64,000 nt of DNA. Source: Eubacteriales bacterium. Lineage in GTDB: Bacteria > Bacillota > Clostridia > Oscillospirales > QAMX01. The position numbers were made by a program, and so were the translations under genes. The stretch is from positions 58,720 through 122,719 of the forward strand of contig JAZUCL010000011.1 in the NCBI GenBank assembly GCA_045639125.1. Direction: 5' to 3'. Of this stretch, positions 14,948-24,350 are shown in pieces; position 1 is the stretch's first letter, and the number at the start of each line of letters is the position of its first letter. The notes below the pieces were generated by a model. That model was not told the origin of the DNA and did not search any database. It saw nothing but the letters and a program-made list of their open reading frames with translations.

Positions 14948-15100
14948 TTAGCTGTCTAAAAACTCATCTTCCAAAACTACCACGTTGCATTCGCTTGTAT
15001 GAGCGGTGCAACGGTCAATGCCAATAATACCTTCAGCAAAACAAGGTTCCCAAATAGCATCTTCATCAAACTCACTTTTGCAACGACCAAGCATTTTATG
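14948..15100 (-). pseudogene. Displaced alternative C-terminus of the metallophosphoesterase
   Basis: HKMLGRCKSEFDEDAIWEPCFAEGIIGIDRCTAHTSECNVVVLEDEFLDS* aligns by eye to the last ~50 aa of 15640..16413. Confidence 0.8.
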
Positions 15101-15647
15101 CTATAACTCCATACCGCTCAAACAAACATCTTTGAGGAGCGGATTGACCAAAATATTTAGCTTCAGCTTGTAGGCGCATTTTAATCGCATCTTCTTTATC
15201 AACAAATATACCCAAATATTTTACTTTATCATCAACACATATTTGAGCAATCCACTTGTGTTTTGTATTGCTAAAATAAACGCCTGTAACACCAGAAGTG
15301 TTAGTTGATATAACGCCATTTCGATTTAAAATGTTTTGTTTCTTGGTAGCATTTCGTAAATTTCCTTTACGATTATCCAATTTATTACGATTGATATGGT
15401 CTACTAACTCATATTTGAAATCTGTAATAAATCTATGCATATATATCCACTTATCATCGGGAGTTTTTATTTTCATATATCCATTACTAAAATCTTTATA
15501 CCAACAATATTCTCTAATCTTATCGTAATCCTCTAAATCAAAATAAAACTCTTCACTGCAATTCGAAGCAATACCAATGCCGAAATTCTCGCTTAATTTA
15601 TATGTGTTATATTTCTTACGCACATTTAATGCTTTATCTTTAATCAT
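15096..15647 (-). CDS. HNH homing endonuclease with AP2-like DNA-binding domain
   Basis: MHRFI, VDHINRNKLDNRKGNLR, NTSGVTGV, W.AQI...YLG.F motifs. Confidence 0.92.
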   Translation of the reverse strand: MIKDKALNVRKKYNTYKLSENFGIGIASNCSEEFYFDLEDYDKIREYCWYKDFSNGYMKIKTPDDKWIYMHRFITDFKYELVDHINRNKLDNRKGNLRNATKKQNILNRNGVISTNTSGVTGVYFSNTKHKWIAQICVDDKVKYLGIFVDKEDAIKMRLQAEAKYFGQSAPQRCLFERYGVIA

Positions 15648-16413
15648 TTATAAAATTATCCTCTAATACTAAAATATTCACTTTGCCAGTATATGCGGTA
15701 CAAGCATCTACTCCAATATAATCTTTTCCATAGTAAATATCAAATTTAGCATCCTCTCCAAATTCAGAAATGCCTTGGTGCTGACTATAAGCATAGCTGG
15801 TATGAAAATGACCGAACACTATCGTTTTGCCTGTTTTGTTTAAGCCTTTCGATGCTATTTCAAATGGATTTCCCCACATTGCTTCATCCCATTCTTTTTC
15901 TGTTACGTTTCGCCAATCAGGATTAAAGTGATATTCTCTGTCTCTTGTGTAATATTTTGGATAATCGTCTTCTGCTGTTATGGGTATCCAACTGTGTACA
16001 AAGATATATTTTTTAGTTTCAAAGTAATTTACTAATAACTCCCTATATTTTGCTAACCTATCCCAAGTCATACAACAACATTCAGCAAAACTTCTTCTAT
16101 AGACCACACCTCCAAGGTCTTCGATTGTCTTAACAGTGCCGTTGGAAACATCGTGAGAATACGGAAATTCTCTCATACAACATTCTTCAAGTAAACTATC
16201 GTGATTGCCTTTTACGAGTATTTTTCTTTCAAGAGACATAAGAAGGTGTAATACCTCTTCGCTTTCGTTCCCGCGATCAAAACAATCGCCACAAACAATC
16301 AACCAATGTTCTTCGTTATTTGGGTCAAACCCAACTTCGTCAAGTGCTTTCTTCAATGGTGTATAAAAACTATGTATATCCGAAGTTACAAAAAATTTAG
16401 GTATCTTAATCAC
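15640..16413 (-). CDS. Calcineurin-like metallophosphoesterase
   Basis: SDIH, GDCFDRG, GNHD, FVH, GHFH motifs. Confidence 0.9.
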   Translation of the reverse strand: MIKIPKFFVTSDIHSFYTPLKKALDEVGFDPNNEEHWLIVCGDCFDRGNESEEVLHLLMSLERKILVKGNHDSLLEECCMREFPYSHDVSNGTVKTIEDLGGVVYRRSFAECCCMTWDRLAKYRELLVNYFETKKYIFVHSWIPITAEDDYPKYYTRDREYHFNPDWRNVTEKEWDEAMWGNPFEIASKGLNKTGKTIVFGHFHTSYAYSQHQGISEFGEDAKFDIYYGKDYIGVDACTAYTGKVNILVLEDNFIND

Positions 16414-16488
16414 CCCTTTTCACTTTAAAACTCAAATTCTATCGTGATTTTTAGGCTCCGAAACGCCCTATTTAAGCCATTCTTGAAA

Positions 16489-17334
16489 TCAATAATTTGT
16501 AATTAAAACCTCAATATCTTTACTTCGGTCAATTTTATGATAATTACAATTTACATAATCTCCATTTAAATAATGAATATGGTACTTGTCCTTCCACCTA
16601 TCCAAAAACGGATTGTCATATTTCAGATTGTTAGACAACGCCCATCTTGTGCCTTGTGCGTCTAACTTATCCAACAACTCAAGTAATTTCTTTTCGTGTT
16701 CTTCTGTCCAACCTTCAAATCCTCGTTTACCATCGTTGTAGTTACCAACTGATGCAAAATAAGGTGGGTCAAAATACAACAAATCATTTTCGTCAAAGTC
16801 AGAGTAATCAATATCAGTAAAACTTTTTGATGAGAAAACAATATCCGTACTTATATTTTTCTTCATTGCATATAAGTCTTCTCTCTGCCTATCCGAAAAA
16901 TAACTTCTGTTTTTACCAAAACTACTATTGTATTGGTGATTATTGTTGAATCTAAACTGATGATTAAATGAATGGCACATCAATGTATAAAGAGTAGTCC
17001 AATCATTCTTCCCCGCATTATAGTCATCACGAAGTTTTTCAAATCCTTCTTTGTTAGTTTTACTAAGTGAATACTCGGCGATTATATTTTCTATTTTCTT
17101 AACAACTGCATTTGTATCTTCTGTTGCAAGCCCTTCAAAGATGCTTGATACATAAGGATTTATGTCGTTATATAGATAATGTTCTGCTTTGGTATTTATT
17201 AAGACTGTTCCTGAACCACCAAATACATCAACAAACATGCTGATTTTATCCGGGAATAAAGGAATTATCTGTCCTATAAGCTTATACTTGTTTCCTATAT
17301 AATTTATAGGCGATTTTATGTATTTATTTTTCAA
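16489..17334 (-). CDS. Dam-family (alpha class) N6-adenine DNA methyltransferase
   Basis: YIGNK, DVFGGSG, DPPY and E.LITNY motifs. Confidence 0.92.
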   Translation of the reverse strand: MKNKYIKSPINYIGNKYKLIGQIIPLFPDKISMFVDVFGGSGTVLINTKAEHYLYNDINPYVSSIFEGLATEDTNAVVKKIENIIAEYSLSKTNKEGFEKLRDDYNAGKNDWTTLYTLMCHSFNHQFRFNNNHQYNSSFGKNRSYFSDRQREDLYAMKKNISTDIVFSSKSFTDIDYSDFDENDLLYFDPPYFASVGNYNDGKRGFEGWTEEHEKKLLELLDKLDAQGTRWALSNNLKYDNPFLDRWKDKYHIHYLNGDYVNCNYHKIDRSKDIEVLITNY

Positions 17335-17460
17335 TGTATCTTAGGAGTAAACACTGTGTTTTCGGTATACCAAACCTCTACTCCTTTCATTTAATATGAC
17401 ATTTGCAACTGCCACACTATATTATTCTCCATAAATTTCTCGATAAAAGAGAAATTCTAT

Positions 17461-17730
17461 CTATATTTCAAACATGTCCCCAAACATCTTCATAACACCA
17501 GTAACTTCTGGTGTTCCCTTTTCGTGCAAAGGACATCTTTCAAACATCTTACCTTCGGGAATTTCTTTTCCTTGTTTACACTCCATCTTTTTGATTCCGT
17601 CTGTACTACAATGTTTGCAAGTCAGACAACTTTTCAAGTTGTAGTTTTTGTTACAAGTTTCTTCATGCTTCAATACATCTTCTTCGATTCCTGTAAAATC
17701 ACAATATTCACATCTGTATATCGGTTTCAT
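17461..17730 (-). CDS. Zn-finger phage protein
   Basis: YRCEYC...HE..C and CLTCKHC. Confidence 0.65.
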   Translation of the reverse strand: MKPIYRCEYCDFTGIEEDVLKHEETCNKNYNLKSCLTCKHCSTDGIKKMECKQGKEIPEGKMFERCPLHEKGTPEVTGVMKMFGDMFEI

Positions 17731-17745
17731 CTCAAATTACCTCCA

Positions 17746-18651
17746 TTAATGTGCTTTCTTGTCGGCTTCGTGCAATCTCATAACCTTTTCAAAAAGTTCA
17801 TTACCCCAAAGTTTCTTATATTTGTTCATAGTCTTTTCACCGTTCTCAGCATCTTTCTCCCAAAAATAAGGTTGCATATGAAGATTGATAATAGTTGAAA
17901 CTTCTAATGGATCAACATCGTCAAGATAAATGTAAAACAGACTATCATATGCCCCTACGCAATGATGCTGATAATAGTGGGCTATATCTGTCTCTTCGCC
18001 CTTTGAATTGATAAAGGACTTTGTGTATGGTTTACCACAATCATGCATCATACCAGCACACAGCAGTGTTCTATCCTCTTCTAGTGATTTGCCGACAGTC
18101 GCACAATGCTCTCCCAAAGTCATACTGTGATGTGGATTATCCTGATTGAATTTCATATGGTCAGCAATCCAAAATCCTACAATATTGGTTTCGTATTCGT
18201 CACGCTCAATTATTATAGAGTCCCAACCTTCAAAGAAATATGGCGTGTTCCAGTTTTTATACATTCTCTCAACAACTTCTACTGGAATAGTTCTTTCTCT
18301 TGATTCATTTCTTTTACAACACTCTTCAAAAGGAACCGCAATTATCACACAATTTTTATAGCAAGGAATATTTTTGAGTTCTGATAAAAACGCCCTGCGT
18401 CTTTTAGAGTTAATATTTGTGGCATCGTAAATCACACTTTCACCATTTGCAAGGTGTTCTTTAATTCTTTTATGTAATAATTTGAATACTTCTTCATTAC
18501 TGGTCTGTGAGTTTATATCGCCAGTCAACTCTTCTCTAATAGCATCAGAACTACATAACTTTGCATTAGTTCTATCGGCTAATTCTTTGGCATAGGTAGA
18601 CTTACCTGAGCCGGGCAAGCCTACCATCATTGTAAAAGTCGGTTTATTCAT
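17746..18651 (-). CDS. Polynucleotide kinase (AAA_33) fused to HD phosphohydrolase
   Basis: GLPGSGKST, DATN, then H...HDCGKP...H.AD; ATG at 18651 has an SD. Confidence 0.9.
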   Translation of the reverse strand: MNKPTFTMMVGLPGSGKSTYAKELADRTNAKLCSSDAIREELTGDINSQTSNEEVFKLLHKRIKEHLANGESVIYDATNINSKRRRAFLSELKNIPCYKNCVIIAVPFEECCKRNESRERTIPVEVVERMYKNWNTPYFFEGWDSIIIERDEYETNIVGFWIADHMKFNQDNPHHSMTLGEHCATVGKSLEEDRTLLCAGMMHDCGKPYTKSFINSKGEETDIAHYYQHHCVGAYDSLFYIYLDDVDPLEVSTIINLHMQPYFWEKDAENGEKTMNKYKKLWGNELFEKVMRLHEADKKAH

Positions 18652-19936
18652 TATCTTTTGTCTCCATTTCACATAACTTCATATACCTGCCGGACTTACT
18701 TTTAACTAAGTTATATTCCTTGCCATAATATTTTTCTCTCACATACGCTTTAATTCTGATTGGAACGTTATCTTTTACCCAAACCATAAATTCTTTTTTA
18801 TCGTTTTTGGGAGCCTTATCAAAATAATCTTTAATTTCTAACTCAGTATTGTGAATGTACTTGAATACAACATTTGCAGTTTTCAAAACTCTATCTTTAT
18901 AAGCTGTAGGAACTTTACTTATCATATCGTCAAATGTTCCGTCGGCAATATTCTTAATAACTAAGTTAACGGAAGAAATCTCAGATAAAACACGATGCAT
19001 ATTTACATAGTCATTATATTTGATCTTAACTTTATAACCATCAATGTTGACAACAAAACCTTCAGCTTCGTTTGATTTTTTATCATCAAGTTCTTTGATA
19101 ACCTCGTCCAACGTTTTGTCAAAAACTGTTGTGGACGGAATGCTATACTTATCGGCAAACTCTTTGATAGTTTTGTAAGAATACTCTTCGCCAGTCACAG
19201 AGTTTCTAATGCCTATGAGATATAAACCTTCTTGCTCTTTAGAATAAACTACGACATGGGCATCTTTCATTGATATGTACTCAAATATAAATGTGAGCAA
19301 AGGATTGTCCATAACAAGGTCTATGTAGCCAGCCCTGTTAAATAACATTTTATATCCGTCTTTTAATCTCCAAGAAAATTCAGGATTAAGAGATGTGCTA
19401 CCGCACATTACAATACTGTCGTTGTAATATCTTACGGCTTGCATCGAGCCGTCCAATTTGTCAGAAAATTCAACACATTTTGCATCCTTTATTCTTTTTG
19501 AAATATTTTCAATACTTGTTTCTTCGCATTCATTGAGGTTTCTGAACTTCTTGAACGGAGTTATCACTAATCGATTTTCTTTGATGTCAATTACAACACT
19601 ACGACATTCTAAGTAAAAGCCGTCGTACTTGTCCCAAAATTCATCGGGTGTTACATCGTCTTCGCCACCAAACACATCTGCATAGTTGCCATATCTAATA
19701 AGAAGCAATCCGTTATGCTCGATTAATTGTAATGGCTTAATCAGTTCTGTGTATTCGGGATTATCGAGTTTTTCAACCCAATACTCCAAACAGGTTGTTT
19801 TACTTGTGTTATAATCCCACAATCTATTTGTTGAGAACATTGATATGTATGCATTTTTTATTTCAATAAATTTATTTAATACCGGATTCCAACTCAGTGT
19901 TATCACTCCTTTGACCAATCTAATGCTTGCCCACAT
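18644..19936 (-). CDS. T4 Rnl1-like RNA ligase (likely start near 19897)
   Basis: ECRSVV, KKFRN, KLDGS (motif I), FEY, EGFVV, KVKIK. Confidence 0.9.
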   Translation of the reverse strand: MWASIRLVKGVITLSWNPVLNKFIEIKNAYISMFSTNRLWDYNTSKTTCLEYWVEKLDNPEYTELIKPLQLIEHNGLLLIRYGNYADVFGGEDDVTPDEFWDKYDGFYLECRSVVIDIKENRLVITPFKKFRNLNECEETSIENISKRIKDAKCVEFSDKLDGSMQAVRYYNDSIVMCGSTSLNPEFSWRLKDGYKMLFNRAGYIDLVMDNPLLTFIFEYISMKDAHVVVYSKEQEGLYLIGIRNSVTGEEYSYKTIKEFADKYSIPSTTVFDKTLDEVIKELDDKKSNEAEGFVVNIDGYKVKIKYNDYVNMHRVLSEISSVNLVIKNIADGTFDDMISKVPTAYKDRVLKTANVVFKYIHNTELEIKDYFDKAPKNDKKEFMVWVKDNVPIRIKAYVREKYYGKEYNLVKSKSGRYMKLCEMETKDNE

Positions 19937-21856: not shown

Positions 21857-21885
21857 TTGAATCATAACCAACTATATGATAAAAT
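21857..21885 (+). promoter_or_regulatory. Sigma-A promoter of the integrase
   Basis: TTGAAT-17-TAAAAT with extended -10 TG. Confidence 0.6.
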
Positions 21886-21921: not shown

Positions 21922-23589
21922 ATGAATATTCATACTATTAGAGAAAAAATGAAAATGCACTCAATATACGAAATACCTATGCGGGTTACTTTTTATGCTC
22001 GCGTTTCTTCTGAAAAAGATGAACAGCTTAATTCTTTAGATAATCAAATAGCATACTATACAGACTTAATTAAAAATAACAAGCATTGGGAATATGTGCC
22101 CGGATATATAGACGAGGGCTTATCTGGAATCTCCACCTTAAAACGAGAAAATTTTAATCATATGATATCGGATGCAAAAAACGGAATGTTTGATTTTGTG
22201 ATCACGAAGGAAATATCAAGGTTTGCACGCAACACCCTAGATAGCATCAGGTATACCCGAGAATTACTGGGTTGCGGCGTTGGCGTATTTTTTCAAAACG
22301 ACAACATCAACACTCTTGATGAAGATTCAGAACTTAGACTCTCTATTATGTCTTCCATCGCACAGGACGAGCTTAGAAAGCTATCTTCGCGTATTAAATT
22401 TGGTCATCAACAGGCGATAAAAAATCATGTTGTGCTTGGCAATAGCAGAATTTTTGGTTATGATAAAAAAGATAAAAAGTTAGTTATAAACGAAGAAGAA
22501 GCGAAAATGGTACGCGAGCTTTTTGAGTTATATGCAACTGACCAATACAGCATGAAACAAATTGAAAACATATTTTGGGAAAGAGGATATAGAAACCGAA
22601 ATGGTAATAAGATAGCTCACACCACAATGTCAAACACAATCTCTAATCCCAAATACAAAGGCTATTATGTAGGCAATAAGGTAAAGGTTGTTGATATGTT
22701 CACAAAAAAACAACACTTCCTTCCACCGGAAGAATGGGTTATGTTTAAAGATGAAACGGGCGATATAGTACCCGCTATTGTCAGCGAAGAACTCTGGAAT
22801 GCAGCTAATGTTATTTTAGAAAGGCGCAGCAACGATGTGAAAAACAAGCATAACATATGTAATCACGAAAATCTCTTGACAGGAAAATTATTTTGTACCC
22901 ATTGCGGAAATGCGTATTATCGACGCGAAAGCATGGATAAAAAGGGCAATAAAAACAGTAAGTGGATTTGTAGTGGCAAAATAAAAAACGGTGCAGAGTC
23001 CTGCCCGTCATTAGCAATTTTTGAAAATGAAATTAAACCGATTCTTTTTGATGTATTTAATGAAACCTCTCCAGTAGCCGAGGATTTGGTTGACTCCTAT
23101 ATCGAAATGTATAAAACAATCGATGCAAGCGGCGAGATAATTAAAGATATGGAAAAATTAAAATTAAAAATTGACCACGAACAAAAAAAGAAACGCAAAA
23201 TCCTTGATTATAATCTGAACGGCGATTTGTCCGATGAAGAATATATTCAGATAAACAAAGAATGTAATCATATTATCAGTGAACTTGAAAAAGATCTTTT
23301 TGATTTACAAGAACAACAAAATTCCAAAGACGATTTTAAGAAACATATTGACGAAATCAAGCAAACGCTACTTGTTGCAAAAAGAGATGCTGCGAATGGG
23401 ATCATATCAAGAGAGTTTGTAAATAAGTATATAGATAAAATTTTCGTAACTCCCGAGGATGGATCTCTTAAACTTGAAATTAAGATATTTACCGGAAAAA
23501 CTTGTGAAAAACATCTTTTAAGTCTTAGAAGTCGCTCGGGTCACATTAGTAAGAAAATGATTGAAGCCTACGAAAACGGCATGAAGTAA
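21922..23589 (+). CDS. Large serine recombinase (prophage integrase)
   Basis: YARVS catalytic motif, DEG.SG, SRFARN, recombinase domain, Zn-ribbon C..CG...C...C and coiled coil. Confidence 0.96.
   Translation: MNIHTIREKMKMHSIYEIPMRVTFYARVSSEKDEQLNSLDNQIAYYTDLIKNNKHWEYVPGYIDEGLSGISTLKRENFNHMISDAKNGMFDFVITKEISRFARNTLDSIRYTRELLGCGVGVFFQNDNINTLDEDSELRLSIMSSIAQDELRKLSSRIKFGHQQAIKNHVVLGNSRIFGYDKKDKKLVINEEEAKMVRELFELYATDQYSMKQIENIFWERGYRNRNGNKIAHTTMSNTISNPKYKGYYVGNKVKVVDMFTKKQHFLPPEEWVMFKDETGDIVPAIVSEELWNAANVILERRSNDVKNKHNICNHENLLTGKLFCTHCGNAYYRRESMDKKGNKNSKWICSGKIKNGAESCPSLAIFENEIKPILFDVFNETSPVAEDLVDSYIEMYKTIDASGEIIKDMEKLKLKIDHEQKKKRKILDYNLNGDLSDEEYIQINKECNHIISELEKDLFDLQEQQNSKDDFKKHIDEIKQTLLVAKRDAANGIISREFVNKYIDKIFVTPEDGSLKLEIKIFTGKTCEKHLLSLRSRSGHISKKMIEAYENGMK
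23551..23589 (+). other. Putative attR: 3' end of a host alpha/beta-type SASP gene fused in frame to the integrase
   Basis: KKMIEAYENGMK* matches the clostridial SASP C-terminus that follows GSVGGxMV. Confidence 0.7.
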
Positions 23590-23606
23590 ATCTTCATGTC
23601 ATGAAA

Positions 23607-23640
23607 GAAAACTCCGACAGAAATATCTGTCGGAGTTTTC
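23607..23640. terminator. Intrinsic terminator between integrase/SASP end and pth
   Basis: GAAAACTCCGACAGA / TCTGTCGGAGTTTTC perfect stem. Confidence 0.9.
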
Positions 23641-23723
23641 ACTTTTATTCATTATAATAACAAGAAACCTTGACCTATACTCTTTAAGTATCACAAGCGT
23701 TAAAATAAGGTAAGTTTTATACC

Positions 23724-24350
23724 TTATTTACCGTTAAACTTATTTGCCGCACTTTCAACACCTGATACAAGTATTTCAATTGCCGCATCTGCTGCTTTTT
23801 TCGTACTTTCAACCATAACTTTCATATCGTCATCAGAGAACTTGCCAAGTACCCAATCAATAATATCGTAGTCAGGGTGTGGTGGAATACCTACGCCGAT
23901 ACGCACTCTTGCAAATTCATCTGTGCCAAGCAAAGCAATAATGTTTTTAAGCCCATTATGACCGCCGTGACTCCCCTTTTTTCTCACTCGGAGTCTTCCT
24001 ACGTCAAGGGTAATATCGTCGCACAAAACAAAGATATTCTCTGTCGGCACTTTGTACCACGCACTCGCCTCTTTTACTGCCTCACCACTCAAATTCATGT
24101 AAGTTTGAGGTTTCATGAGAAGTACACGCTTGTCACCAATCATACACTCCCCTGTTAAAGCCTTAAAACGCAAACGATCAATCTTTGTGCCTTTAGCAGA
24201 CGCAAGACAATCTATTGCCATAAAGCCAGCATTATGACGTGTATTGTCGTACTTATTGCCATAGTTGCCAAGACCTACAATAATGTGACTTACTGTGGCT
24301 TTTGTGTTTCTTTCACTTTCAAGTTTTTTGAATATATCAAATATGGACAT
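23724..24350 (-). CDS. pth: Peptidyl-tRNA hydrolase
   Basis: GLGN, TRHNAGF, KPQTYMNLSG, GGHNGLK. Confidence 0.97.
   Translation of the reverse strand: MSIFDIFKKLESERNTKATVSHIIVGLGNYGNKYDNTRHNAGFMAIDCLASAKGTKIDRLRFKALTGECMIGDKRVLLMKPQTYMNLSGEAVKEASAWYKVPTENIFVLCDDITLDVGRLRVRKKGSHGGHNGLKNIIALLGTDEFARVRIGVGIPPHPDYDIIDWVLGKFSDDDMKVMVESTKKAADAAIEILVSGVESAANKFNGK

Follow-up and report, generated by a model that had tools for sequence, protein, structure and literature searches.

The only detectable gene for an α/β-type small acid-soluble protein of spores (SASP) of the host, ssp, is very probably split by a temperate tailed phage of at least 105 kb that integrated through a large serine recombinase (LSR), with the attP site located within the integrase gene int itself; the integrase tail that is exchanged there probably has a functional role. 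The right junction, attR, falls into the 64,000-nucleotide stretch of DNA analysed here (the window; G000:C11:58720-122719) of assembly G000, which comprises 22 contigs and 1.52 Mb; positions given without a contig refer to the window. At attR, the integrase (Int) keeps its whole canonical LSR body, loses a conserved tail of ~32 aa, and gains the last 11 SASP residues together with the stop codon and terminator of ssp. At attL, SASP residues 1-53 run on into the Int tail, with a phage terminator behind it. If the element excised precisely, both a 64-aa SASP gene and a 576-aa Int would be re-formed.

The junctions of int and ssp

The int gene encodes a resolvase-type catalytic domain (Pfam Resolvase, PF00239, E 1.2e-27, residues 24-168), a Recombinase domain (PF07508, E 3.5e-19), and a zinc ribbon (Zn_ribbon_recom, PF13408, E 8e-11) with a coiled coil, an architecture that identifies Int as an LSR, that is, a phage serine integrase. 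R27, V28, and S29 are invariant across homolog sets of 33 and 36 sequences; judged by its position, S29 is the likely nucleophile. The C-terminus of the translated 555-aa ORF reads ...SLRSRSGHISKKMIEAYENGMK. Codons 1-543 are of phage origin, codon 544 falls within the core shared by the two att sites, and codons 545-555 and the stop are those of the host ssp gene (Table 1). The initial annotation had proposed that the end of int is taken from a SASP gene and that attR lies near 23550. Both claims hold: intact SASPs of same-family relatives are 62-65 aa long and end in ...GSVGGQMVKKMIE[AS]YENG[MIL]K, the ssp fragment is 81-90% identical at the DNA level to the 3' ends of intact SASP genes in eight relatives, a match not due to chance, and the hexamer TAAGAA common to attL and attR places the site exactly at 23550-23555. 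Inverted-repeat symmetry of the deduced attP is weak; the best centre within the core, at AA 23551-23552, matches in 10 of 24 positions and ties with one centre outside the core.

Table 1. Features of the split ssp locus, the prophage, and a related island. Positions are those of the window unless a contig is given.
Feature	Position	Strand	Basis or remark
Prophage right arm within the window	1-23549		Low GC, PHROGs; continues to C11:1, then gap, C2:39497-62627
Sigma-70-like promoter match 5' of int (TTGAAT, 17 nt, TAAAAT, with TG)	21857-21885	+	Consensus match only
int, LSR gene, prophage isoform, 555 aa	21922-23589	+	Pfam domains; homologs at 74-86% identity; homolog model aligns with solved LSRs
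attR core TAAGAA	23550-23555		6-bp identity with attL; crossover within hexamer
3' fragment of host α/β SASP gene, KKMIEAYENGMK plus stop, read as end of int	23551-23589	+	Matches to relatives
Intrinsic terminator of host ssp, now ending the int transcript (predicted)	23607-23640	+	15-bp stem, 7 GC pairs, T-rich tail
Host peptidyl-tRNA hydrolase gene pth, convergent with ssp	23724-24350	-	Pfam PF01195, E 9.8e-69
attL core TAAGAA	C2:39491-39496		Hexamer identical to attR core
SASP-Int-tail hybrid ORF, 85 aa	C2:39336-39593 (L001 1489-1746)		PF00269 plus phage tail
Island in relative G037	G037:C14:168116-192397 (L159, L160)		Bounded by attL/attR-type ends in the host's only SASP gene

A terminator scan of the region returned five terminator-like sites, against 0.8 expected from shuffled sequences. 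Sigma-70-like sites number ten, with 8.9 expected by chance.

The annotation had also called for the 5' half of the SASP gene at the other end of the prophage. This half is present on contig C2. When all six frames of the assembly were searched with PF00269, the SASP profile and the one Pfam profile on which the designation of ssp as the only SASP gene is based, there was a single match (C2:39348-39497, 86 bits) that covers profile positions 1-50 of 59 and ends ...GSVGGQMVK. The hybrid ORF that contains it reads MAKSNGS...QAGSVGGQMVKN, then ICPVRTRVCMRNNRNVNGHIESVTYKYNITI and stop; its junction, ...GSVGGQMVKN-ICPVRTRV...ITI, is followed by a bidirectional terminator. When the host halves are joined in silico at the 6-bp core TAAGAA, a core of the small size, identical at both element ends, that is usual for the short att sites of LSRs, they reconstitute in frame an ORF for a 64-aa protein ending ...GSVGGQMVK-KMIEAYENGMK. 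A whole-length fit to the PF00269 family needs both parts; the gene is split here and no whole protein is encoded. The lysogen would thus be unable to make a normal SASP unless the element excises.

attL and attR are located on different contigs (C2 and C11) of a 22-contig assembly, as might be found if the SASP-like ending of int were a coincidence or the contigs of different organisms had been combined in assembly or binning. We consider the probability of such an artefact negligible: the two ssp halves of G000 fit in frame, hybrid endings of the identical type occur in hundreds of independent assemblies, and in a relative, G037, attL, an element of ~24 kb, and attR lie on one 381-kb contig. 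The single-contig element and the recurrent endings among homologs contradict an artefact.

An uninterrupted site is present in metagenomic DNA. Contigs of four metagenome runs were compared with the window over positions 22900-24300; the sequencing runs found to contain part of the stretch were DNA runs with a share of 0.12 or less, and no RNA run was among them. A 192-nt contig (record 9 of run X2) begins with the 14 bases that adjoin the attL core on its left and passes directly into window positions 23550-23725. The contig, which differs from the window over 176 bases by seven substitutions and two one-base insertions, comprises an uninterrupted ssp 3' end, the terminator (with two substitutions and two one-base insertions), the intergenic flank, and two bases of the pth 3' end. 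An empty site at which ssp adjoins pth, as anticipated by the annotation, is thus found; the 14 bases left of the core also occur in the ssp genes of other hosts. Support for the empty site is modest because it comes from one short contig of a near relative. The 40 relatives searched include no same-genus genome, and the ssp genes of relatives in other genera have no pth or TIM-barrel neighbour within ~1.5 kb. No joints were reported in the metagenome contigs over 22900-24300. In another contig (run X1, record 2, 1654 nt), the match to the ssp 3' end is preceded, to the left of 23551, by an integrase-type sequence that is not that of the window; this contig probably derives from another lysogen of a related element in another host.

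Integrated and excised forms of Int

As read from the two junctions, the int frame contains attP at a point 32 codons ahead of its stop. Integration therefore yields two in-frame hybrid genes, and Int shows two traits of a BPs-type isoform change, an attP within a phage ORF (here int) and integrated and excised forms that differ at the C-terminus. The difference in C-termini, predicted earlier for the window, is borne out by the frame right of attL, which is open for 31 codons, and by the presence of the corresponding tail in 17 of 120 homologs and 38 of 63 viral loci.

The 120 best protein homologs of Int are 74-100% identical to it. Their C-termini are of the SASP type in 95, of the phage-tail type in 17, and of other types in eight. 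The SASP-type tails vary in sequence (for example, KKMIESYENSIK, KKMVEDYENKIK, and KKMIEKYEQDLANGQ); the phage-tail homologs are ~576 aa long and end like the sequence right of attL (for example, ...SNMICPVRKVEYIRNNRTVDGHIQTIEYEYKMVL). Among species-representative genomes, at least 544 of 600 candidate stretches encode a relative. The best 80 of these loci, 62-86% identical and from metagenome-assembled genomes of gut and rumen Clostridia, comprise 74 SASP tails, two phage tails, two other endings, and two cut sequences. The 63 loci on viral contigs from IMG/VR, many of them on contigs of 76-81 kb and others on contigs of 100-137 kb, divide into 38 phage tails, five SASP tails, 12 other endings, six cut sequences, and two loci with no ORF. 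Bacterial genomes thus hold mostly the integrated isoform and viral contigs mostly the excised one. The attL product recurs as well: a search with the last 40 residues of the hybrid ORF retrieved 61 PF00269-bearing proteins of 61-88 aa with the junction ...GSVGGQMVK-N-ICPVRT. A named phage collection contained no close relative of Int; the best match, 54% identical, is on a faecal phage contig that carries no annotation.

An integrase of 46% identity is present in its excised form on dozens of nearly identical viral contigs of 76-81 kb (L021-L076), most of which belong to a single IMG/VR dataset. In two of this set (L026 and L028) the same integrase is in the integrated form, with the tail ...FKKMIEQQERQMSG...; distant branches of the family therefore target SASP genes too. 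Within a separate sub-group (P0116-P0120, L109, L116, and L158), two other endings occur, ...SGQMSLTI in proteins of 546 aa and ...SGQMSFFMCVENEN... in proteins of 567 aa. They may represent the integrated and excised forms for a target other than ssp.

In an alignment of 22 excised-form integrases that are 42-89% identical to the homolog P0092, the length of the tail is constant and certain positions (R, R, G-H, Y) are conserved, with R556 and G563 of P0092 being nearly invariant. Most copies end in hydrophobic residues, and the tail is predicted to form a β hairpin. In divergent DNA copies, 31 codons are open after the junction residue in 10 of 10; the other two frames contain stops in both for seven copies and in one for three. 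The differences by codon position, 708/718/887, amount to only a mild third-position excess.

An AlphaFold2 model of P0092, built from the 22-row alignment and of middling quality (mean pLDDT 71, pTM 0.39), contains long helices at residues 405-491. A linker of low confidence (527-544) leads to a β hairpin, whose strands span 550-557 and 565-575 and have pLDDT 77-80. The model aligns with solved LSR structures (4kis, 9dxh, 9iu2, and 9tep, of which 4kis is LI integrase, 9iu2 Bxb1, and 9tep phiC31) at Z 11-13; a sequence search of solved structures matched N-terminal domains only. Because the solved LSRs align only up to residues 523-533, the crossover falls past the canonical LSR body, and the exchanged piece is, on this model, an accessory module beyond the canonical LSR fold. 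With the canonical body ending before the crossover, both isoforms should be catalytically whole. A complex prediction of the tail docking in trans (Int 170-555 with hybrid residues 46-85), run without controls, scored 0.00, which counts neither for nor against such docking.

The same observations bear on a simpler reading, in which ssp is just a landing site, the lysogens make SASP-deficient spores, and the overlap of attP with int has no regulatory meaning, so that the tail swap is neutral. LSRs commonly target conserved sites within coding sequences (PMC10083194). The predicted catalytic completeness of both isoforms and the rather variable sequence of the tail would also fit a swap of this kind. 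However, even integrases with an overall identity to P0092 of only 42-45% have a tail of the same length and frame with the same key residues, and the predicted hairpin is of fair confidence. An LSR half-site measures ~25 bp; the conserved tail reaches 93 bp past the crossover and thus beyond the half-site. We regard a neutral swap as possible but doubtful, and favour a functional tail by which the phage and prophage isoforms of Int may differ in stability or directionality.

The prophage, its relatives, and their hosts

The GC content is 0.32-0.37 left of the junction vs 0.39-0.45 in the host part. Low GC covers the last 23.1 kb of C2, beginning at C2:39.5 kb, and the first 82.3 kb of C11, up to the junction. 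The end of C2 and the start of C11 do not overlap; because this join is unassembled and the att sites are on different contigs, we infer the size and unity of the prophage; taken together as a single element, the arms would measure at least 105 kb.

PHROGs annotation covered 86 ORFs of both arms. Contig C2 carries genes for a DNA polymerase, primase/helicase, exonuclease, Sak-like annealing protein, and repressors. Contig C11 carries anti-repressors, a terminase-like protein, portal, virion proteins, endolysin, tape measure, and tail proteins, together with metabolic and repair functions (dUTPase, NrdD/NrdG, the thymidylate synthase ThyA, methyltransferases, polynucleotide kinase, and RNA ligase). 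Within the window are the genes for dUTPase, NrdD/NrdG, thymidylate synthase, polynucleotide kinase, and RNA ligase, as well as one for a tail protein and four for DNA methyltransferases. Those for portal, tape measure, terminase-like protein, and endolysin lie outside it, as do those for DNA polymerase and primase/helicase. By this gene content the element looks like a complete large temperate tailed phage.

Some further genes of the prophage deserve mention. A polynucleotide kinase/phosphatase and an RNA ligase are paired at 17746-19936, as in RNA-repair cassettes, and many HNH and GIY-YIG homing-endonuclease genes are found at 15096-19936 and elsewhere in the prophage. Two genes resemble tyrosine recombinases (PHROGs integrase families), one at C11:174-1289 on the minus strand (L166:174-1289) and one at C11:23779-24729 on the plus strand (L167:3779-4729). 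These two might serve in dimer resolution or might belong to a nested element or a second prophage.

Judged by the shared integrases and endings, the G000 element is one of a large clade of SASP-targeting LSR elements of gut and rumen Clostridia. Its members are phages of ~76 to 137 kb and, in at least one case, a 24-kb island that has no obvious virion genes, that of G037. The Int of this island has 581 aa and ends ...GHTFKKMIESYENSMK. The larger island ORFs encode an RHS-repeat/HNH protein (1580 aa), sigma-70-family proteins, a tyrosine recombinase, a Fic protein, and an HTH repressor, and there are no virion genes among its ORFs of at least 150 aa. The module of LSR and ssp site thus serves an island unlike a phage as well as phages.

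In the species studied, α/β SASPs are proteins of the forespore; they bind DNA in spores and are the main protectants of spore DNA. G000 encodes Spo0A_C, the SASP-specific protease Gpr, and SpoIVA. A PF00269 match is present in 35 of 41 genomes (this one and 40 relatives), and no same-family genome has more than one. In five of the 41 (G000, G010, G017, G037, and G038) this sole match is split, with the SASP ending at profile position 49-52 and continuing into a phage-type tail. A regular expression for forespore promoters, built on a forespore-sigma consensus, had no match in six ssp upstream regions.

The nature of the target raises the question whether the element acts as a developmental switch. 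SPbeta in spsM (SprA/SprB) and skin in sigK (SpoIVCA) of Bacillus subtilis, as well as the gin element in gerE and the yin element in yabG, are likewise LSR elements within the ORF of a sporulation gene. In systems of this type the LSR gene lies beside one att site and precise excision rebuilds the gene in frame, as predicted here. In a skin-like reading, the element would excise during sporulation and rebuild ssp; because α/β SASPs are forespore proteins in the species studied, this excision would occur in the forespore, that is, the germ-line chromosome. Several observations are consistent with it. The target is a sporulation gene that is single-copy here and in most same-family relatives, the hosts retain Gpr, and the clade, with its hundreds of relatives in Clostridia, is very common. 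The 24-kb element of G037, with the same LSR/site module and without obvious virion genes, is reminiscent of degenerate intervening elements. [quoted passage not shown] Forespore excision would cure the spore unless the circle were retained and re-integrated, and a conserved coding sequence makes a good attB for ordinary reasons. On these grounds we think a skin-like switch unlikely. A reversible germ-line switch would have the forespore excise the element and rebuild the SASP gene, the spore keep the circle, and the 576-aa Int re-integrate it at germination, with the tail exchange acting as a switch of directionality or stability; we hold this form of the reading to be very unlikely. Our preferred reading is the one given at the outset, a temperate phage integrated in ssp with attP within int and a functional tail.

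Known systems and implications

The preferred reading combines features of several known systems. Unlike elements of the SPbeta/skin type, this one has attP inside the int ORF, so that Int itself changes on integration; and the target is an α/β SASP gene instead of a mother-cell gene. A118-type LSR prophages of Listeria, which sit in comK, similarly interrupt a host gene for development or regulation within its coding sequence, but target and biology differ; the structure of the LI integrase (4kis) matches the P0092 model at Z 12.4.

The closest analogy for the isoform change is provided by mycobacteriophage BPs and its relatives, in which attP also lies in a phage ORF and the viral and prophage C-termini differ. 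In BPs that ORF encodes the repressor, and integration removes a C-terminal degradation tag (PMC3694055). BPs uses a tyrosine integrase with its own separate tag, whereas here the ORF is that of a serine integrase and a predicted 32-aa β hairpin is lost. Integrases of SSV-type archaeal viruses resemble Int in having the recombination site within the int frame (PMC7253208). These are tyrosine recombinases whose gene is split in two; here, the exchange is confined to the last 32 codons and leaves the canonical fold intact.

In the openly accessible literature searched, no prophage or LSR element in a SASP gene is described. The words 'spore' and 'SASP' are absent from the main text and six supplementary files of a large LSR survey (PMC10083194) and from the main text of PMC12884075. 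What we rate as new here is the combination of LSR insertion in a sporulation gene with an integration-dependent change of the Int isoform, each kind being already known. A forespore-side target that is single-copy in these hosts is unusual.

The natural occurrence of two forms of Int, told apart by a conserved predicted hairpin beyond the canonical LSR fold, offers a ready system in which to study how an accessory C-terminal piece tunes the stability or direction of serine integrases. For the hosts, the abundance of the SASP-splitting clade means that either many lysogens make SASP-deficient spores or a forespore-side excision programme has gone unrecognised. If the spores are SASP-deficient, the phages would impose a cost on transmission and survival. 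If the reversible switch were true, it would be the first forespore-side programmed rearrangement, and one widespread in gut Clostridia.
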